From the IMG/VR virus record IMGVR_UViG_3300010165_000001, positions 64,001 to 128,000 of that record: a stretch of 64,000 nt of DNA. One strand, written 5' to 3'. Under the pieces are notes generated by a model. That model searched no databases, had not been told where the DNA came from, and saw nothing but the letters and a program-made list of their open reading frames with translations. The DNA comes from a virus. Within the stretch, counting starts at the first letter, position 1. The number at the start of each line of letters is the position of its first letter. The position numbers and the translations under genes are program-made. Positions 1,088-13,046 of the stretch are shown here, piece by piece.

Positions 1088-1387
1088 CTAATTGCTTTCT
1101 GTGTTTATATCTTCTATCGCTTTTTCTAGTTGTGTTAATGGTTTAAATTCTATATATTTTCTTTCTGGTAATTCAAAGTATTCTTTATTAAAACCATCAT
1201 ATGCTTTCTTACTTGGTCTAGTCTTAATCTCTAATTGAAATAGTTTATGATGTTTGATTTTCTTATGTCCTTCTGATATAAATTCTGCTATACTATCTTC
1301 TTCGGCTTCTAGTATTTCTTCTATATCTCTTATAAAATAACCTGTCTTATCAGATATTCTTCTAGCTAAGTCTTTTCTGTTAATCAT
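1088..1387 (-). CDS. HU/IHF-like DNA-binding protein
   Basis: 99 aa. The N-terminus, MINRKDLARRISDKTGYFIRDIEEILEA, resembles the HU/IHF helix-turn-helix start. A basic arm region, KTRPSKKAYDGFNKEYFELPERKYIEFKP, follows. It sits just upstream of polA, as I recall for the 'integration host factor' gene of phage K-like genomes. Confidence 0.6.
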   Translation of the reverse strand: MINRKDLARRISDKTGYFIRDIEEILEAEEDSIAEFISEGHKKIKHHKLFQLEIKTRPSKKAYDGFNKEYFELPERKYIEFKPLTQLEKAIEDINTESN

Positions 1388-2112
1388 GAGGTTATATTAT
1401 TCTCCTTTTTGACTTTAGTAATAATTTTAGATACTTCTTCGTAGTCTTTATCTGTGTTTGTTATTATATAGAGATACATTTTCCATACCGATAATGGGAG
1501 TCTTAGTTTAGTTGTAAAATCATATTTGTAATCAGGTTTAACATCATACCCTTCCCCATCATAGAAGTAATACTCTTCTTGGTCTTCTTGGATACTTGTT
1601 AGTCTAGGAAATGATAAATGAATCTCATCTACACTCATCTTCAAACTATATAGACCTTTAATAATAAGATAAGGGTTAACATAAGGGAAAGTAATAGCTA
1701 CATCAATAACTACTTTCACACCCATATAACTTAAAGATATATTATCAATTTGTTTATCTGTGAAATCTTCTTTCATTTGATAAACTACAGTAGAGTTTTT
1801 ATTATTAGATAATTGTTTAAATACATAGTAAGGAACAACTGTATCTGTATAAAATGTAACCCCACTACTATGTGAACATATCTTTTCTATAAGTCTATCA
1901 TTATTATATTGTTCATTAAATAACATGTACTTCTTATCTGTCTTAGCTTTGTATCTCTTAGACTTCTTTTCTAATTCATTCATTTCTTTTTCTATTTCAT
2001 CTTCATTAAGTCTAGTTACTTTTATGTACTCTTGGAATTCATCTTTTGTCTTTGTATGAATGTTAAAGTACCTATCACTATTATATATAGTCAGTGTTTT
2101 ATTTTTACCCAA
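1384..2112 (-). CDS. Hypothetical protein (242 aa)
   Basis: Minus-strand ORF with a TTG start preceded by AAAGGAGAG. It overlaps the next gene by 4 nt. No motif recognised. Confidence 0.6.
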   Translation of the reverse strand: MGKNKTLTIYNSDRYFNIHTKTKDEFQEYIKVTRLNEDEIEKEMNELEKKSKRYKAKTDKKYMLFNEQYNNDRLIEKICSHSSGVTFYTDTVVPYYVFKQLSNNKNSTVVYQMKEDFTDKQIDNISLSYMGVKVVIDVAITFPYVNPYLIIKGLYSLKMSVDEIHLSFPRLTSIQEDQEEYYFYDGEGYDVKPDYKYDFTTKLRLPLSVWKMYLYIITNTDKDYEEVSKIITKVKKENNITS

Positions 2113-2138
2113 CTTTAACTCTCCTTTAATTTTATATT

Positions 2139-2187
2139 AAAAAACACCACTACCCTGTTACATATATTATAACATAAGTAGTGGTGT
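2139..2187 (-). terminator. Putative terminator hairpin with a large loop
   Basis: On the minus strand, ACACCACTAC (25-nt loop) GTAGTGGTGT is followed by TTTTTT, just downstream of the 2201 stop. The loop contains TGTTATAAT, an extended -10-like sequence. Confidence 0.4.
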
Positions 2188-2200
2188 ATTCAAAATATAA

Positions 2201-2593
2201 TTAGCTTAAACTAATTCCTAAGTCTTTTACTAAAGCATCCATTTTATTAATACCTTCTGTAGGTTCTTTTATTTCTTTTTGAGAAACTAGTTCTCCATCT
2301 TTAAAACCTAATAGTGTAGGTACTTCTTTAATATCAAAATACTTTTCTACAGTTTCTTTTCCTTCTTTAGCTTGGTCTGTATTTAAGTTAACTGAGTGAA
2401 TATCTAATTGTAAGGCATCTATATAACTTCCAATACCAAACTCTAACATAGAACAAAAACCACAATTATCTTCACTAATCATTACTAATAACTTATCATT
2501 AGTTCCAGCTAAAGTTTCTAATTCTACTAAACTTTCTACTTGTTCAATCTTTTTAGGCTCCATAATAATCTCCTTTATTGTTAAGCTTCGCAA
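2201..2593 (-). CDS. Thioredoxin-fold redoxin (NrdH/glutaredoxin-like)
   Basis: 130 aa with a CxxC site in ..ISEDNCGFCSMLEF... It overlaps the end of the RNR alpha gene by 13 nt, which suggests translational coupling. Confidence 0.6.
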   Translation of the reverse strand: MRSLTIKEIIMEPKKIEQVESLVELETLAGTNDKLLVMISEDNCGFCSMLEFGIGSYIDALQLDIHSVNLNTDQAKEGKETVEKYFDIKEVPTLLGFKDGELVSQKEIKEPTEGINKMDALVKDLGISLS

Positions 2594-4263
2594 TTAATAC
2601 ATAGTTTTGATAGGTTGAATTGTTGTGCTGCATTAGTACCATGTTGGTAATATAATGATTTAATTCCATTAGCCCAAGCAAATAGGTATAATTCATTTAA
2701 TTCTTCAGAAGTAACATTAGTAGGATTAACCATAATATTTAGAGATTGTCCTTGGTCAATATAATATTGTCTTGTTGCTGCTTGGTCTAAAATATTATAT
2801 TGGTTGATTTCTCCATAAGTCTTGAATACTTCTTTTTCTGTTTGGTTTAGGAAATCTAAGTGTTGAACAGAACCATCAGTATCTCTAATACTTTCCATTA
2901 CTTCTTTTGTGTCCTTACCTTTTTCTTGTAATAATTCTTTTAGATAAGGGTTAATCATAGTTTTTTTAACTTTAGCAGTATCAACAACATAGTAGTTACT
3001 CATGAAAGGTTCTATTGATTTAGAAACTTGTCCAAGAATGAATGAACTTGAAGTTGTTGGAGCTACAGCGAGTAACGTTGTGTTACGTCTACCATACCCT
3101 TTTAGAATTTCTGGTTCTCCTAATAAGTTTGCTAATTCTTCACTTGCTTTATATGCACGTTTTCTTATTAAAGCAAATATTTGTGAATTTAATCTACTTG
3201 CCTCCACACTTTCAAAAGGAATAAGTTTAGATTGTAAGTATGAGTGCCAACCTAACACACCTAAACCTAAGGCACGATTTTCTTTAGCAAAGTTGTAAGC
3301 ACGCTCCATTAATTTAAAAGCTTCTACTTCTTCTCTATCTCGTGAATCTCTCATTAATTCTAGGTCTGAAATAAACTCACTCATTACTGCATCTAAGAAA
3401 TAAATCATTGTTTCTACTGCATCAGTGTCTTTCCATTCTTCATATTTAACTAAGTTCATACTAGATAAGTCACAAACAAATGACCAATCTTCTTTATTAG
3501 GTAACATTATCTCTGAACATAAGTTTGAGTTGTTAATTAATAATCCTTTATCTTTATAAACATCTACCGTATTTTTATTAGCATTAGTATGGAAGAATAT
3601 ATAAGGGAAACCTAGTTGAGTTCTACGTGTAAGTACTTTAGACCATATTCTACGTTTCTCTGTATCACCATTAATCATCTCTAACATCCAGTCATCTGTA
3701 ATAGATACTGCATGTGTCATGTTTTGGATTGGGTTACCTTCTGTACCTATTTCTAAAAATTCATCAATATCAGGGTGGTCAATAGGTAAGTAAGGACTAA
3801 AACGTCCTCTACGTGTGTTTCCCTGAGATACTACATCTGTTTCTGTTTCAAATAATTTCATAAAATGTACAGAACCACTTGTTTCACCATTATCAGTGAT
3901 TTTAGCACCTCTAGGTCTTATTTCACCAAAGTAACCGCTAGTACCTCCTCCATACTTACTCATTATTCCTACTTCACTGGCAGAGTTTAAAATACTTGGT
4001 ATGTTATCTTCAACATAACTACCAAAACAACTTATACTTAATCCTTTACCTTTACCAAAGTTAGCCCATACAGGACTTGATAAGGAATAAAAACCTCTAC
4101 CCATGTAATCATAAAATTTATCTGAAAAGCCTTCGATACCTAAAATATCTTCGGCTTTATCTGCTATATCTTTAATTCGTTGTTCAGGTGTCTCACCCTC
4201 ACTTAAGTACCCTCTTTCTAAGAATACTCGTGAATCTGTGTTTAACCATTCAAAGTTTGCCAA
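2581..4263 (-). CDS. nrdA: Ribonucleotide reductase catalytic (alpha) subunit, short form without an ATP-cone
   Basis: 560 aa. Class I motifs are present: LSISCFGSY, the active-site NSNLCSEI (N-x-C-x-E), APTTSSS, the radical-transfer pair SLYYQ, and a C-terminal redox pair CINCEA. Confidence 0.85.
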   Translation of the reverse strand: MANFEWLNTDSRVFLERGYLSEGETPEQRIKDIADKAEDILGIEGFSDKFYDYMGRGFYSLSSPVWANFGKGKGLSISCFGSYVEDNIPSILNSASEVGIMSKYGGGTSGYFGEIRPRGAKITDNGETSGSVHFMKLFETETDVVSQGNTRRGRFSPYLPIDHPDIDEFLEIGTEGNPIQNMTHAVSITDDWMLEMINGDTEKRRIWSKVLTRRTQLGFPYIFFHTNANKNTVDVYKDKGLLINNSNLCSEIMLPNKEDWSFVCDLSSMNLVKYEEWKDTDAVETMIYFLDAVMSEFISDLELMRDSRDREEVEAFKLMERAYNFAKENRALGLGVLGWHSYLQSKLIPFESVEASRLNSQIFALIRKRAYKASEELANLLGEPEILKGYGRRNTTLLAVAPTTSSSFILGQVSKSIEPFMSNYYVVDTAKVKKTMINPYLKELLQEKGKDTKEVMESIRDTDGSVQHLDFLNQTEKEVFKTYGEINQYNILDQAATRQYYIDQGQSLNIMVNPTNVTSEELNELYLFAWANGIKSLYYQHGTNAAQQFNLSKLCINCEA

Positions 4264-4279
4264 TATCTATTCTCCTCCA

Positions 4280-5629
4280 TTAATTACCTAGTGTTAACAT
4301 TCTCATTCTTAAAATCTCATTAACCTTGTCTTTAGACAGTTTTTCTTCATTTTCCTCAAACTCTGAATTAGATGAGAATAGTGTATCTTCTGTTACTGTA
4401 TTTGTAAATTTAGTATAGTTAACAGAACGTTTAGATAAGAAATCCGTTAGTTTCGTACTAATAACTTCATCATCAAACCATGCTGTTTCTGCTAACACTT
4501 CTTCATCAATTTTAAATAATTTTTCAAATCCGATTGATTCTAAAGAATTGTTTAATCTGTTTTTAATAAATTCTTTTACAGTACGCTTAGGTAAGAACTC
4601 TAACTCACCGTCTTCATATAACCAGTCTAAAACTTTTTTCTCTGTTTCATATGAATGTTCGCATGCTTCATATACTGTACGTTTCATTTCCCCATCGAAC
4701 CATTCAGGATGTTCTCCTCTTAAGATATTAATAATTTCAATACCAAATAGACCATGAATTTGTTCTTCTTTAGATGTAGCCTCAATAGCATTAGATAACC
4801 CTCTGAATAGGTTCTTATGTTTATTGAAACTCATCATGATTAAGAATTGACTGAATAATGATACATGCTCAATAAATAGTGAGAATAGTAATACTGACAG
4901 TACATAGTCTCTATTATCTTCACTCTTACTTAATTTAGTGTGCATAGTAAGCTCATCTACACGCTCTCTTAATGCAGGTATATCGTCTATATGTTTAAAT
5001 TCTTCATTTAATCCTAACAATTCTAGTAGGTGAGAGTAAGCATCAGCATGTCTAACTTCTGATTCTGAGAACGTTGCACCAACTGCACCTGTTTCCCATT
5101 TAGGCATACGATGATATAGGTCACCCCAAAATGTTTTAACAGCAACTTCAACTTGTGCAATAGCTAACATAGCATTTTTAATTGCAGTTCGTTCGTGAGG
5201 TTTAACATTTTGTTTAAAGTCTTGAATATCACTTGTATAATTAAATTCGGTATGAATCCAATAACTGTTTCTAATAGCATCTGCATATTCTAGTAATTCA
5301 GGGTATTCATAAGGTTTTAATTCTTTTCTTGGTTTAAATATATCTCGTCTACGTTCTCTATCTCTTTTGTCTCTATACAAAATAAAAGCCTTAGCAGTAT
5401 CTTTATACTTACTACCAAGCAATACTTCTTCCACTGTATCTTGAACACACTCTACTGTAAGTGTCTCTTCTTTTTCTTCTAATAGACTATCTACATCTTC
5501 TACTAAAGTATCGATATTATCTTCCAAGAACTCATTCGTTTCTGTATTAGCTCTTAGGATAGCATTTGTTATTTTATTTAGGTCATACTCCACAACAGAC
5601 CCGTCACGTTTCTTAATTTGCGTAATCAA
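4280..5629 (-). CDS. nrdB: Ribonucleotide reductase radical-generating (beta) subunit with an N-terminal ATP-cone
   Basis: 449 aa. Residues 1-95 (IKKRDGSVVEYDLNKITNAI...VECVQDTVEEVLL...AKAFILYRDKRDRE) match the ATP-cone consensus. The ferritin-like core carries LAIAQVEVAV, SESEVRHADAYS (E-x-x-H then Y at +4) and SKEEQIHG (E-x-x-H). Confidence 0.85.
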   Translation of the reverse strand: MITQIKKRDGSVVEYDLNKITNAILRANTETNEFLEDNIDTLVEDVDSLLEEKEETLTVECVQDTVEEVLLGSKYKDTAKAFILYRDKRDRERRRDIFKPRKELKPYEYPELLEYADAIRNSYWIHTEFNYTSDIQDFKQNVKPHERTAIKNAMLAIAQVEVAVKTFWGDLYHRMPKWETGAVGATFSESEVRHADAYSHLLELLGLNEEFKHIDDIPALRERVDELTMHTKLSKSEDNRDYVLSVLLFSLFIEHVSLFSQFLIMMSFNKHKNLFRGLSNAIEATSKEEQIHGLFGIEIINILRGEHPEWFDGEMKRTVYEACEHSYETEKKVLDWLYEDGELEFLPKRTVKEFIKNRLNNSLESIGFEKLFKIDEEVLAETAWFDDEVISTKLTDFLSKRSVNYTKFTNTVTEDTLFSSNSEFEENEEKLSKDKVNEILRMRMLTLGN

Positions 5630-5644
5630 TCAAATATCCCCTTT

Positions 5645-5956
5645 TTATTTATGTTTTTCAATCATTTCCTCAATTTTTTCTTTAGGTGCAAAACCATTAA
5701 TACTATCTACTTTTTCTCCATCTTTGTATAGTATCAATGTAGGAATACTCATAACTCCAAGATTTGAAGATACATCAGGTTCTTCATCAATATTAACTTT
5801 AAGAACATCCAGGTCATTAGATTCTTCACCGATAGCTTCTACAGAAGGCATAACCATTTTACATACACTACACCAAGGTGCCCATAAATCAACTAGGTTT
5901 AACCCTTCTTTTGTTTTATTATCAAAATCTTTTGTTTCTATATCAATTACTGCCAT
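5645..5956 (-). CDS. Thioredoxin
   Basis: 103 aa. It has the WAPWCSVCK active site (WCxxC) and the cis-Pro region ..MSIPTLILYKDGE.. typical of thioredoxins. Confidence 0.8.
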   Translation of the reverse strand: MAVIDIETKDFDNKTKEGLNLVDLWAPWCSVCKMVMPSVEAIGEESNDLDVLKVNIDEEPDVSSNLGVMSIPTLILYKDGEKVDSINGFAPKEKIEEMIEKHK

Positions 5957-5971
5957 TATTAAACATTCTCC

Positions 5972-6580
5972 TTATAATTTATCCATAATATTTTCTATAG
6001 CCTTGTCCTCATCTTTATTATCTTTTGTAGTTTCACTTTCTATCACTTTATAAGGTTCAGGCTTAAAATCGTCATAGTGATATTTAATATAGGAGGTCTT
6101 AAAACTGGTCAACGTATCAATGGTCATTATCATTACATCAAAATATTGTTTATCTTTTCTTATATTTTCAGTAATGAAATCCGTTCTCATGATAGGCTCA
6201 CCTGTGTCTCTTACATCTTCATATACACTTTCAATATATGGTAATGCTACAAATGTGTTAGCTCTATTCCTTGTAAATATCAAACAAGGAGCTTTACCTA
6301 TTCTATTTGAATCAGTGATTACTTGCTCCCACCAAGTATGTGGTTCTTTGTTATTAAGCATTATATTTTCTATTGTCCAATTTTCTCTATGCTTACATTC
6401 TATTACTAATGGAAAGTTAGCTTGCGGAGGGGCAACTATATCCCCTACCGCATTATTATCAGCTAACCAATGAGAACCTCCTGATTGAGGAGTTCTAGAA
6501 AACTTGAACCCCCACCAATCACCAAGGACTTTAGCAATCTTTCTCTCGAAAGTATTACCTTTTTGTTTACTATTAACCAT
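5972..6580 (-). CDS. PD-(D/E)XK nuclease, putative Holliday-junction resolvase
   Basis: 202 aa. The N-terminus is KQKGNTFERKIAKVL. A D...E-x-K signature is present (..GDIVAPP...LVIECKHRE..). Size and position match the 'resolvase' gene I recall between primase and RNR in phage K-like genomes. Confidence 0.55.
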   Translation of the reverse strand: MVNSKQKGNTFERKIAKVLGDWWGFKFSRTPQSGGSHWLADNNAVGDIVAPPQANFPLVIECKHRENWTIENIMLNNKEPHTWWEQVITDSNRIGKAPCLIFTRNRANTFVALPYIESVYEDVRDTGEPIMRTDFITENIRKDKQYFDVMIMTIDTLTSFKTSYIKYHYDDFKPEPYKVIESETTKDNKDEDKAIENIMDKL

Positions 6581-6975
6581 TATTTATCGTCTTTCTTGAA
6601 TTGGACAACTTTCTCATCAGATTTATTTTCTTTTTCTTCTGCTTCTTGGTCTTCTTTGAATTTCTCTTGGATTTCTTTCTCTCTTTCATCAAGAGCTCTT
6701 TCAATATCTTCTGTAGTTACATTAATTTTATCACGTAAAATAAAGAATACTGAGTCTAACATTGCTGTTAAGTTGTTAATATCACTTTGAGTTTCTAGTC
6801 TTACTAAATACTGTGCAATTGTAGAAGCATCAGCTAAGTTTACTGTTCTCTTAGATAAACGTTCTAATTGTTTTACTTGTTTTTCAGAAGGTTCTTTACC
6901 TTCTACTTTACCAAACGTAATAAATTCTACCCACATTCTTAAGTCTTGTTCACTAATTTGTTTTTCTTCAGCCAT
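6580..6975 (-). CDS. Hypothetical protein (131 aa)
   Basis: Minus-strand ORF abutting its neighbours with start/stop overlap. No motif recognised. Confidence 0.55.
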   Translation of the reverse strand: MAEEKQISEQDLRMWVEFITFGKVEGKEPSEKQVKQLERLSKRTVNLADASTIAQYLVRLETQSDINNLTAMLDSVFFILRDKINVTTEDIERALDEREKEIQEKFKEDQEAEEKENKSDEKVVQFKKDDK

Positions 6976-7292
6976 TATTCATTCTCCTCTACTTTTTGTT
7001 TATTTTCATAAATTTTATTTTGCATCTCTTCTACAGTATCTTCTGTAATAATTCCTGTGTCAATCATAGATTCAATCATTATGTTTAAATCTTCAACTAA
7101 CCCATCTTCTGTATTAGTCATTTGTGTATCAATGTTACGAATTAAGTTAGTTACAACTAATGCTAATTCTTCTCGTGTAACAGTAATATCTCTACCTTCT
7201 TTTAAAGTTTCTTCATAGTCTTGTTTATCTTTCATTGTCATACTATGAATAACTTTATCAATATAATTTAAAATACTTTCTTTCTCTTCCAT
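6975..7292 (-). CDS. Hypothetical protein (105 aa, acidic)
   Basis: Minus-strand ORF abutting the next gene. No motif recognised. Confidence 0.55.
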   Translation of the reverse strand: MEEKESILNYIDKVIHSMTMKDKQDYEETLKEGRDITVTREELALVVTNLIRNIDTQMTNTEDGLVEDLNIMIESMIDTGIITEDTVEEMQNKIYENKQKVEENE

Positions 7293-7352
7293 CTACATTT
7301 CCTCCTTGTGTCGATATATTCATTATACCACAATATCTTGTATTTAACAAGC

Positions 7353-8414
7353 TTAATTTATAAGTTTTTGTTGAATTTCATAATTTGTTAATCCTTCTGG
7401 TGTTGCTTTAATTCTTTTGTCTTTAATTAATTGAAAAGCTTTCTCAGTACCTAAATCATTTGGGTCTTCCTCCCCATGAGGTACAACATAAGTATTTGGA
7501 AACTTCTTAAATAATTCTCTAGCTACTTTTACATTGTACGTATAAGCATCACTATCTAGCATTAAATAAATATCTGTGTCTGGTTTTACATATTTCTTAA
7601 TCAATTTAATTTGATTATCAGATACTGCTTTACCGAATGTAGCTATACCGTATTGATGAAATGTTAGTGCATCAAAAACACCCTCAGTTATAATTAACAT
7701 TCTTTGGTCTTTAGCCTTATTGAAGTTAAATAAAACATCTTTCTTACCATATTGTTCATCACTTGCAGGTGCATTAATAGTTTTCATCTTGGTTGGAATA
7801 ATACTTCTTGTATTCCAATAAACGTATTCACCTTGTGCATTATACGTAAAGAATATTAAACTATTGTAGAAAGTAAAGGTTTGAATATTATCTGACTTAT
7901 AACATTTAGACTCTACAGTATAAGCAATATTATGTTCGATAATTTGCTGTAGTGTAACCCCTCTACTATTTAGGTACCTTAGAAAAGGAACAGCTTCTTT
8001 ATTATATAAGTTTTGAGATAAGAATTTATAATTAAAAGGTAATTTAGGTGGCTTCTTTTTAACTTCATATTCTTCAGGTTCTACACCTCTTAGTAGAAGT
8101 ATTAACTTTTCACTATCTGATAGACTATTATCAAATTTAATTGTTTTATCCATGTCTATTTCAATATTATTTTGTTCTAATAGTTTTACTGCATTTCTAC
8201 TATCAACGTTATAATATTGTTTCATAAATGTAATAGGATTTCCTGTTTCACCACAATTAAAACAAATGTATTGTCCATTCTTAGAATCTAAAGATTGTTT
8301 AACATAGAAACGTTTCTTTGTATCTGAACAGAAAGGACAATTATATCTTAATTCTCCTACTGTACTTTCTAAAGGTGCACCTAAAGTACCTTGTAAAAAT
8401 TCTTCAAACCTCAT
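7353..8414 (-). CDS. DNA primase (zinc finger plus Toprim)
   Basis: 353 aa. It has a CHC2-type zinc finger (CPFCSDTKKRFYV...CFNCGETGN) and Toprim motifs (ITEGVFDALTF, YLMLDSDAY). Confidence 0.8.
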   Translation of the reverse strand: MRFEEFLQGTLGAPLESTVGELRYNCPFCSDTKKRFYVKQSLDSKNGQYICFNCGETGNPITFMKQYYNVDSRNAVKLLEQNNIEIDMDKTIKFDNSLSDSEKLILLLRGVEPEEYEVKKKPPKLPFNYKFLSQNLYNKEAVPFLRYLNSRGVTLQQIIEHNIAYTVESKCYKSDNIQTFTFYNSLIFFTYNAQGEYVYWNTRSIIPTKMKTINAPASDEQYGKKDVLFNFNKAKDQRMLIITEGVFDALTFHQYGIATFGKAVSDNQIKLIKKYVKPDTDIYLMLDSDAYTYNVKVARELFKKFPNTYVVPHGEEDPNDLGTEKAFQLIKDKRIKATPEGLTNYEIQQKLIN

Positions 8415-11333: not shown

Positions 11334-12358
11334 TATAGAACCTCCTTAAGACATTCTATTATTTCTTTCTTAGCTTCTGGTGTGAATTGTTTAGCATATG
11401 CTTCTGCAATTGTTAATGGGTCATCTGATACATCACTATCAATACGTTTTTCTACGGTATACTCTTTTTTAACTTGAACTTCAATATTATCTTCTTGTTC
11501 TTTATTTAAATTAATTTGTTTAGCTTGTTCAGGTGTCCCTATAAAACGAATAAAGTTTCCTTTTTCTACAAGCTCATCAATATTATCAGGAACATTATCT
11601 CCTTGTATTGTAATGAACTTACGTGTATCTAAAGGTATGAATTCAGTAGTTAATTTATCTGTATCTATTAAGTGTACCCCATTAGACTCTTGTTCATCTG
11701 AGAAGGATTGTTGTAATAAAGAACCCCCATAAAAATGATTAGGATTAGTGAAATACTGTCTTCTATGATAGTGACCTAATAGAATAAAAGCATAGTTGTC
11801 AGGTAATAAATCTTGATAACCAAATGCACCTTCAAGTCTGTGTGAACCCTTACCTGTCAGAGAACCCTCTACACCTAAGTGTCCTACTAGAATATTTACT
11901 TTACCTTCTTGGTAGCTATCTTTAATAAATTCTTTAATCTCTTCTGTCTCATCCCCATAAGCACACATCGTTAACTGTACCTTTGAGCTTAAAGGCTCAC
12001 TTCTTAATGTTTTAGCTACTTCTACATTAGGTAAAGTTTCAAATATATCTATACTTGAATCAGTGTATAGTGAGTTACTTACAGCATCATGATTACCTCT
12101 AACCATATAAACTTTAATGTCTTGATTATTAGCAAATATTTCAAAGACCTTGTTATACACTCTAGTATCTACTGAATTACGTTTGTGGAACAAATCTCCT
12201 CCAAATATAACTTTAGCTTTTTCTTCTCTAGCAATATTAAACACTTTCTGTAATGCCTCTATTTGCTCTTTAAATCTATCATTTACATAATATTCATCAG
12301 GTTTTGCATAGTTTGTAAATAAATGAAAATGACTATCAGTAAAAAATATAAATTTCAT
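11333..12358 (-). CDS. SbcD/Mre11-like nuclease (calcineurin-fold phosphoesterase)
   Basis: 341 aa carrying the phosphoesterase motifs FFTDSHFH, GGDLFH, RGNHD, VGHLG and LGHYH. Confidence 0.8.
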   Translation of the reverse strand: MKFIFFTDSHFHLFTNYAKPDEYYVNDRFKEQIEALQKVFNIAREEKAKVIFGGDLFHKRNSVDTRVYNKVFEIFANNQDIKVYMVRGNHDAVSNSLYTDSSIDIFETLPNVEVAKTLRSEPLSSKVQLTMCAYGDETEEIKEFIKDSYQEGKVNILVGHLGVEGSLTGKGSHRLEGAFGYQDLLPDNYAFILLGHYHRRQYFTNPNHFYGGSLLQQSFSDEQESNGVHLIDTDKLTTEFIPLDTRKFITIQGDNVPDNIDELVEKGNFIRFIGTPEQAKQINLNKEQEDNIEVQVKKEYTVEKRIDSDVSDDPLTIAEAYAKQFTPEAKKEIIECLKEVL

Positions 12359-12672
12359 TATTTATCCTCCAAATCCTCTTCAACAAGTTTGTGTATATGT
12401 TTTTCTAGTTCGTCAGATGAAGTATCTACATCATTTACATAAGTAGTTATTTTATTATTGTTATCTGTTAAAATAATTGTATTTGGTTTATATTCAAGCT
12501 CAAACACTCTATCTTCTGGACTTGCTACTTCAATTGTCATCCCTTTAGTTTCTGACTCACTTGTTAGAAATACTACATATCCTTCTGGTTTACTTCTATT
12601 AAAAAATCTAAAGTTAATTATTGGGTCAAAATTTCTCATTATAAATCTCTCCTTTTTTTGTTTGTAAACCAA
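12358..12672 (-). CDS. Hypothetical protein (104 aa)
   Basis: Minus-strand ORF abutting the Mre11-like gene. No motif recognised. Confidence 0.5.
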   Translation of the reverse strand: MVYKQKKERFIMRNFDPIINFRFFNRSKPEGYVVFLTSESETKGMTIEVASPEDRVFELEYKPNTIILTDNNNKITTYVNDVDTSSDELEKHIHKLVEEDLEDK

Positions 12673-12677
12673 GTATA

Positions 12678-13046
12678 CTATAATACTTGGTCATTGTCAA
12701 TATTTAAATACATTGTGCATACAATTGTTTCTGAACTGTTATTTAGTTTTTCTTCCAAATGGAATATCCCCATTTCATCTAGTACTCTAGGTACAAAGTG
12801 TGCATATTCCCATCCTTCTGTATACCATGTATCAACAAAGTCTTCTCCTTTTTTAATACCTTCTAATACTTTAATTGTCATTTCTAGTTTTATTAGATTA
12901 TATTCATCCTCGTCACCTTTTTGTTCATCTAAAACAATATCAATTGCACCTTCTAATGTTTCTATTAGACTTTCAATACTTTCCTCTGATAATTCTTTTA
13001 TGTAATTAATATTCATATAAAACCTCTCCTTTATTTGTAATCTCAT
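12678..13046 (-). CDS. Hypothetical protein (122 aa, acidic)
   Basis: Minus-strand ORF. No motif recognised. Confidence 0.5.
   Translation of the reverse strand: MRLQIKERFYMNINYIKELSEESIESLIETLEGAIDIVLDEQKGDEDEYNLIKLEMTIKVLEGIKKGEDFVDTWYTEGWEYAHFVPRVLDEMGIFHLEEKLNNSSETIVCTMYLNIDNDQVL

Follow-up and report, generated by a model that had tools for sequence, protein, structure and literature searches.

The placing of an ATP-cone on the radical-generating subunit NrdB is an architecture known since 2018, and virus-encoded examples were already listed in the eLife paper of that year (PMC5794259). The same paper names the residues of the cone-cone (beta4) interface that dATP induces in the NrdB of Leeuwenhoekiella blandensis. 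The class Id tyrosine, Y207 in the L. blandensis protein, lies 6-7.6 A from the metal site and is no radical carrier (PMC5794259, PMC6754362). The architecture is also common in viruses. At least 80% of the phage NrdB analyzed here, cone included, is covered by 65 records of the phage collection; Staphylococcus phages account for 61 of the 223 matching records and for most of these 65. In IMG/VR we found 518 contigs with relatives; of the best 80 matches, 76 start within the first 7 residues and therefore include the cone.

The locus described here lies in a window of 64,000 nucleotides (bases 64001-128000) from a phage genome that is complete, 140,164 bp long and has direct repeats at its ends. 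The G+C content of the window is low, and its minus strand carries almost every gene. Over bases 2000-6000 the identity is 98.5% with Staphylococcus phage vB_SurM-PSU4 (Herelleviridae, Twortvirinae, Baoshanvirus) and 77-79% with Silviavirus (SA11, Remus/Romulus) and Mammaliicoccus phages. The source is a Staphylococcus phage of the Twortvirinae, near Baoshanvirus PSU4. A sequence-only reading of this DNA had pointed to the cone on NrdB and to the Leeuwenhoekiella precedent (Rozman Grinberg 2018). The precedent was well chosen, as the closest solved relative of the phage protein is 5OLK, but two points were missed: the architecture had already been reported for viruses, and NrdB has an extra C-terminal tail.

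The four-gene cassette and its class

The cassette consists of four genes in the order thioredoxin, NrdB, NrdA and CGFC redoxin, all on the minus strand:

5645..5956, minus strand: thioredoxin, 103 aa, active site WCSVC, first gene of the cassette (Pfam Thioredoxin, E 8.7e-24; TIGR01068, 102 bits, cut-off 96.8)
4280..5629, minus strand: nrdB, radical-generating subunit assigned to class Id, 449 aa, with ATP-cone, ferritin-like core and tail (best solved match 5OLK, E 4e-158, residues 2-418)
2581..4263, minus strand: nrdA, catalytic subunit assigned to class Id, 560 aa, no ATP-cone, C-terminal CxxC (6DQX, E 1.4e-211; 6DQW, E 1e-182; TIGR02510, 737 bits, cut-off 602)
2201..2563, minus strand: closing gene of the cassette, for a divergent 120-aa protein with thioredoxin fold and CGFC (Pfam Thioredoxin, 26.8 bits, cut-off 23.5)

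The intergenic gaps are 15-17 nt long and contain ribosome-binding sites. The thioredoxin stop lies 15 nt ahead of the nrdB start, a TTG codon with the ribosome-binding site AAAGGGGA upstream, and the boundaries of nrdB are identical in the GenBank annotation of the 98.5% identical vB_SurM-PSU4. Two flanking thioredoxin-fold genes had been reported before. Pfam recognizes the fold in both, and the WCSVC protein passes TIGR01068, but the start of the CGFC gene has to be moved: judged from the upstream sequence, it is most likely the ATG at 2563 rather than the TTG at 2593. This ATG is preceded, at a distance of 6 nt, by an AAGGAG site and gives a product of 120 aa, matching the PSU4 annotation. 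A PHROG search with the CGFC protein gave no match, and a scan of 1900-7400 for promoters and terminators gave nothing that usefully exceeded shuffles. At window 1384-2112, also on the minus strand, lies a gene for a 242-aa protein without Pfam match, which belongs to phrog_1054 over its full length (unknown function, E 1e-94). The MSShimriz1 counterpart carries the label 'DNA repair photolyase', for which our analysis gave no support.

The cassette encodes the sole ribonucleotide reductase (RNR) of this phage. The complete genome has exactly one RNR large subunit, and searches of it for NrdD and for a second RNR found none. A search of the whole 140-kb genome for NrdI (PF07972) was negative, whereas the same search was positive in five control genomes. 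A whole-genome Pfam scan gave a single ATP-cone, with 75.9 bits, at window 5357-5620. Two domains precede the tail in NrdB:

5357..5620, minus strand: ATP-cone domain of NrdB, residues 4-91 (PF03477, 72 bits against a cut-off of 25.8, E 6e-20)
4505..5326, minus strand: metal-binding core of NrdB, residues 102-375 (PF00268, Ribonuc_red_sm, E 5e-56)

On the alignments described below, the phage RNR is a class Id enzyme (NrdAi/NrdBi). The top eight PDB matches of NrdB are all class Id betas (5OLK, 6SF4, 8DQ3-5 and 6CWO-Q), while NrdA is nearest to 6DQX and 6DQW and passes TIGR02510. Membership of class Ia fails, with Glu instead of Asp as first ligand and a NrdA without cone, and the class Ia models failed too (NF006576 for beta, 27 bits against a cut-off of 346; NF006578 for alpha, 68 against 813). 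Class Ib fails as well, with no NrdI in the genome and low scores for TIGR04171 (57 against 355) and TIGR04170 (144 against 750).

The roles of individual NrdB residues were assigned from PMC5794259 and PMC6754362 via the 5OLK alignment. The metal ligands E161, E191, H194, E254, E289 and H292 correspond to E170, E200, H203, E263, E298 and H301 of L. blandensis, and K165, W168, Y198 and T285 correspond to K174, W177, Y207 and T294. The features of class Id among them are the helix-B lysine K165, the subclass tryptophan W168, and Y198 held by T285. The six ligands and these four residues are invariant in the NrdB alignment of 40 relatives. The earlier suggestion that the first metal ligand is Glu is borne out by E161 in AQVEVAV, and the Tyr at +4 from the first His is indeed present (H194 and Y198 in RHADAYS), but the tyrosine of class Id carries no radical (PMC5794259, PMC6754362). 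The link drawn to Mn-dependent NrdB subclasses could be made specific, as class Id, by the closest structures, the ligand set and the signature residues. By the same comparison the 'class Ia' labels on GenBank relatives from Staphylococcus phages are misnomers, and class Id is correct. The correction of this label is the practical gain of the class assignment.

In NrdA, Pfam gave only the barrel and a weak match to the all-alpha N-domain, and the ATP-cone (PF03477) was searched for and not found in it, in agreement with the earlier description of this 560-aa subunit. Its residue 3 aligned with residue 29 of the tagged 6DQX chain. C79, N247, C249, E251, C264, Y538, Y539, C555 and C558 are invariant in the NrdA alignment. 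Cys249 is the thiyl-radical residue, accompanied by N247/E251; C79 and C264 form the redox pair, Y538 and Y539 the tyrosine pair, and C555-x-x-C558 stands at the C-terminus.

The ATP-cone and the probable mode of action

Profile score and conservation agree that the N-terminal domain of NrdB is a bona fide ATP-cone, as the sequence-only reading had proposed. The cone is about 44% identical to that of L. blandensis, counted on the 5OLK alignment, and the core about 68%. The beta4-interface residues D73/E76/M80/K89/I92/I93/R95 of L. blandensis are D64/E67/L71/K80/I83/L84/R86 in the phage protein, which are identical or conservative. The KRDG motif at the N-terminus and many other cone residues are invariant or conserved in at least 90% of 40 sequences, down to 61% identity.

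The steps by which the phage enzyme would work are inferred from the enzymes of L. blandensis, F. ignava and F. johnsoniae; its metal content, its inhibition by dATP and its tetramerisation are predicted from a homologue with about 44% (cone) to about 68% (core) identity. NrdB would build a Mn2(IV,III) cofactor, with superoxide as the probable oxidant and NrdI not involved. This cofactor, and not a tyrosyl radical, would start the radical transfer, which would pass through Y405 in the NrdB tail to Y538/Y539 and C249 of NrdA. NrdA would be a minimal catalytic subunit with a specificity site and no activity site, and overall activity would be sensed on NrdB by the N-terminal cone. With ATP on the cone, NrdB would be a beta2 dimer and give the active alpha2beta2 complex; with dATP the cones would pair, and beta2 would pass into an inactive beta4. 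The C-terminal CxxC of NrdA would most likely be re-reduced by both phage redoxins.

How much of this control does the phage enzyme retain? The RNR of phage T4 has kept its cone yet is not inhibited by dATP, and phage RNRs can thus lose the dATP off-switch. The cone described here might likewise be functional only as an ATP-dependent activator or oligomerisation module, without the off-switch, because a lytic phage gains nothing by halting its dNTP supply. Our computed data fit ATP-only and ATP/dATP behaviour alike. However, the residues of the dATP-induced cone-cone interface of 5OLK are conserved both here and across the phage clade (D64, E67, L71, K80, I83/L84, R86), and we consider an ATP-only cone unlikely. 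A more extreme view, that the cone is vestigial and the enzyme unregulated, can appeal to the inactive cones known in other RNRs. It has against it the Pfam score of 72 bits, above the cut-off of 25.8, the conservation of the KRDG motif and of many cone residues, and the retention of the cone in 76 of the best 80 of the 518 IMG/VR loci; we give it very little credence. Sensing of both ATP and dATP by the cone is the reading with which we continue.

The C-terminal extension of NrdB

The solved NrdBi proteins all terminate at ...DDLF, aligned with residue 418, whereas the phage NrdB runs 31 residues further. Two parts can be distinguished behind the core:

4376..4504, minus strand: ancestral C-terminal tail of NrdB, residues 376-418, containing Y405 and ...EDTLF, the motif at the end of canonical NrdBi (aligned with the very C-terminus of 5OLK, 6SF4, 8DQ3 and 6CWO)
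4283..4375, minus strand: clade-specific C-terminal extension of NrdB, residues 419-449 (31 residues), absent from solved NrdBi and found in one branch of relatives

In the ancestral part, Y405 and F418 are invariant in the alignment of 40 relatives. The extension consists of three parts, namely the conserved motif SxxSE(F/I/L)E, a linker that is acidic and variable, and a predicted amphipathic helix (433-446). It is present in 40 of 61 dereplicated relatives and absent from the other 21, which are close and canonical. The 120 nearest relatives in the database show two types of end: behind the NY(T/S)K anchor there are 11 residues in the canonical type and 36-47 in the extended type. In a tree of the 61 dereplicated NrdBs, built with the tail and the adjacent co-varying segment excluded, the end types are split by a single branch (SH-aLRT 98), that is, by one change. 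Within the extension K433 and M444 are invariant, and S422, N437, L440 and R441 are conserved in at least 90%; mapped on the predicted helix, the conservation runs along one face. Between diverged phages pN of the extension is 0.22-0.28 against a pS of 0.54-0.86.

The extended-type contexts that we opened are all phage or prophage: Staphylococcus and Mammaliicoccus phages, a prophage of Nosocomiicoccus ampullae and three metagenomic phage contigs. A close relative with canonical tail was also found in a Herelleviridae-like phage. The 'bacterial' homologues in Nosocomiicoccus were rejected as support for a cellular origin of the extended clade: the examined copy sits in a prophage, and the 'bacterial' Nosocomiicoccus NrdB entries of NCBI are therefore prophage genes. 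This prophage (L005; N. ampullae chromosome CP079109.1, 1130917-1144251) has an extended-tail class Id RNR with nrdA in three pieces and also encodes Dam and C5 methylase genes.

An origin of the extension by loss of a stop codon was rejected: in the 240 nt past the stop, read in three frames at 16 loci with canonical tail, there was no extension-like sequence. A search of 1.84 billion representative proteins with a profile of the tail (28 positions, 40 sequences) returned no more than two NrdB fragments from the C-terminus and a false positive with TPR repeats; at the level of this profile, no other family carrying the motif and no donor were found. A search of the available literature for a described C-terminal extension of NrdB in phages found nothing relevant. 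We regard the clade-specific tail as a modest novelty on an otherwise known enzyme type.

It is worth noting that the RNR genes of several relatives are full of mobile elements (L003:3001-5522, L005:7350-10412, L006:7970-10713, L010:2997-5505 and proteins P0123, P0192 and P0001). The nrdA genes of relatives are split by GIY-YIG or HNH endonuclease genes; the RNR copies of our window are uninterrupted. Some NrdA homologues reach 893 aa with a LAGLIDADG (PF14528) insert, and some NrdB homologues 750-776 aa. In L008, a contig of a Herelleviridae-like phage, a TnpB/IS605 OrfB gene (11888-13021; PF07282, Cas12f1-like TNB) lies between the HU-like and DNA polymerase genes and is missing from contig L009, which is collinear in other respects. 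Between nrdB and nrdA of L008 (7260-8189) lies a 309-aa gene whose Pfam matches (DUF723, DUF4379) are faint and of homing-endonuclease type. In L009 a decayed remnant of it is left as an ORF of 36 aa (7350-7460), which was considered as a detached tail and rejected in view of the intact gene in L008.

What does the extension bind? Co-folding of NrdA with NrdB residues 419-449 gave an ipSAE of 0.81, against 0.01 for the best of three controls, the score being the model's own confidence on inputs that we supplied (an NrdA alignment of 31 rows, a tail alignment of 39 rows, and residues 419-449 alone). The ipSAE mark is reached by 58 of 80 solved complexes and by 2 of 110 mismatched pairs. At least 76% of the contacts are common to the runs, and the partner pLDDT is at least 68. 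The tail residues in predicted contact are 430-433, 436-437, 440, 443-444 and 447, including K433, V436, N437, L440, M444 and L447, and in the model these are the conserved helical face. On the side of NrdA the predicted contacts are 190-198, 489, 493 and 524-532. Residues 190-198 fall inside the stretch aligned with E. coli R1 194-350, and 489/493 and 524-532 align with human R1 residues about 689/693 and 722-730; this R1 region forms the site for the beta-tail peptide in class Ia structures (PMC3483043). By this model the helix 433-446 would sit in the beta-tail site of NrdA, as a second anchor or as a substitute for the ancestral one. Because the predicted site is the known beta-tail site, part of the high score may come from solved class I alpha/beta-peptide complexes that the model had memorised. 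The PDB sequence-search matches included no tail-bound class Id alpha-beta complex.

The contact with the lowest predicted error is NrdA residue 531. Its variation, an observation independent of the co-fold, fits the predicted docking. Every one of the 7 paired loci of the extended clade has A, S or V there, as have 92 of 92 NrdA homologues with at least 75% identity, and more than 60 canonical-tail loci have R, K, E, Q or M; below 75% identity, 22 of 22 homologues have R, E or Q. As a single evolutionary event underlies this co-variation, we treat it as a consistent signature to which no statistic is attached. A 12-residue insertion of NrdA near 300-316 was also considered as a partner feature of the tail and was rejected: it accompanies extended and canonical NrdBs alike and is therefore unlinked to the tail.

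On these results, a phage lineage of class Id RNR may have rebuilt the docking between alpha and beta. The helix 433-446 of NrdB would fill the beta-tail site of NrdA, fitted by the large-to-small change at 531, with the DTLF motif now internal. The tail would be bipartite, possibly of higher affinity or bivalent, and could alter the capture of alpha by the dATP-induced beta4. We offer this proposal tentatively, with a likelihood that comes close to an even chance and stays somewhat below it.

The extension could instead recruit a partner other than NrdA, such as a phage redoxin, a component of the replisome or of dNTP synthesis, or the ATP-cone of its own protein. A precedent for a reductant tethered to beta is the glutaredoxin fused to the class Id NrdB of Facklamia ignava (PMC6187632), and the conserved DTLF motif could remain the true anchor for NrdA. 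The thioredoxin neighbours, however, were rejected as tail partners for want of a pattern of co-occurrence, because thioredoxin genes also flank NrdBs with canonical tail (L008/L009) and none adjoins nrdB in L006. In the AF2 monomer of NrdB the helix is predicted with pLDDT 53-62, residues 391-419 have pLDDT below 50, and packing of the tail on cone or core is not seen; this model lends no support to an intramolecular role. The co-variation at residue 531 also points toward NrdA, and a different partner seems to us rather improbable, though slightly likelier than an ATP-only cone. Docking on NrdA is the reading that we prefer for the extension. As a whole, the interpretation of the locus as a class Id RNR with NrdB-borne activity sensing by homology, plus a bipartite tail predicted to dock on NrdA, is in our opinion highly probable.

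Both RNR assembly and its inhibition by peptides have classically been addressed through the C-terminal peptide of beta. If the proposed docking is true, a lineage with a second docking helix and a matching change in alpha would show how the alpha-beta interface can be re-engineered, and the phage enzyme would be convenient for studies of class Id alpha-beta complexes.

Comparison with known systems

The class Id RNR of L. blandensis (5OLK, 6SF4/6SF5; PMC5794259, PMC6754362) resembles the phage enzyme in the domain order of NrdB (cone, linker, core, tail), in the metal ligands, the helix-B Lys, the Trp, the Tyr/Thr pair and the residues of the cone-cone interface, as well as in its short NrdA without cone and in the lack of NrdI. 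In contrast, the phage NrdB is a phage gene whose product has 31 C-terminal residues past the end of the L. blandensis protein, and the phage genes are flanked by their own thioredoxin-fold genes. There are also small differences in motifs: DDLF of L. blandensis is DTLF in the phage, and TKH..DFF and TKR are TKL..DFL and TKF.

The phage NrdA is collinear, over residues 3-559, with the class Id alphas of Actinobacillus ureae and Flavobacterium johnsoniae (6DQX, 6DQW) and shares with them the catalytic Cys/Asn/Glu, the YY pair and the C-terminal CxxC. It differs from them by the 12-residue insertion near 300-316 and by Ala531, where they have Glu or Gln. The F. johnsoniae beta (6CWO-6CWQ) differs from the phage NrdB in its domain composition, since 6CWO has no cone. 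The Grx::ATP-cone::NrdBi of Facklamia ignava (PMC6187632) is a class Id beta of a Firmicute and resembles the phage protein in bearing an ATP-cone and in its physical association with a redoxin function. However, its glutaredoxin is fused N-terminally, whereas the phage redoxins are separate genes and the element added to the phage NrdB is C-terminal.

In Staphylococcus phage K (Kayvirus) the same slot of the replication module is taken by a class Ib cassette, likewise followed by a thioredoxin. This cassette encodes NrdI, a 704-aa NrdE with RNR_N domain and a 349-aa NrdF, and none of its proteins has a cone. The contrast drawn in the sequence-only reading between this NrdI-NrdE-NrdF set and the present cassette is thus justified, NrdI being absent from our genome. 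Comparison of phage K (L094:36884-41119) with window 2201-5956 shows that the slot is bounded by a PDDEXK/RusA-like resolvase gene and by HU-like and DNA polymerase genes. In Kayvirus it contains NrdI-NrdE-NrdF-hypothetical-Trx, and in Baoshanvirus and Silviavirus the class Id cassette. With different cassettes in the same slot, the two lineages of Twortvirinae therefore differ by a swap of the whole cassette.
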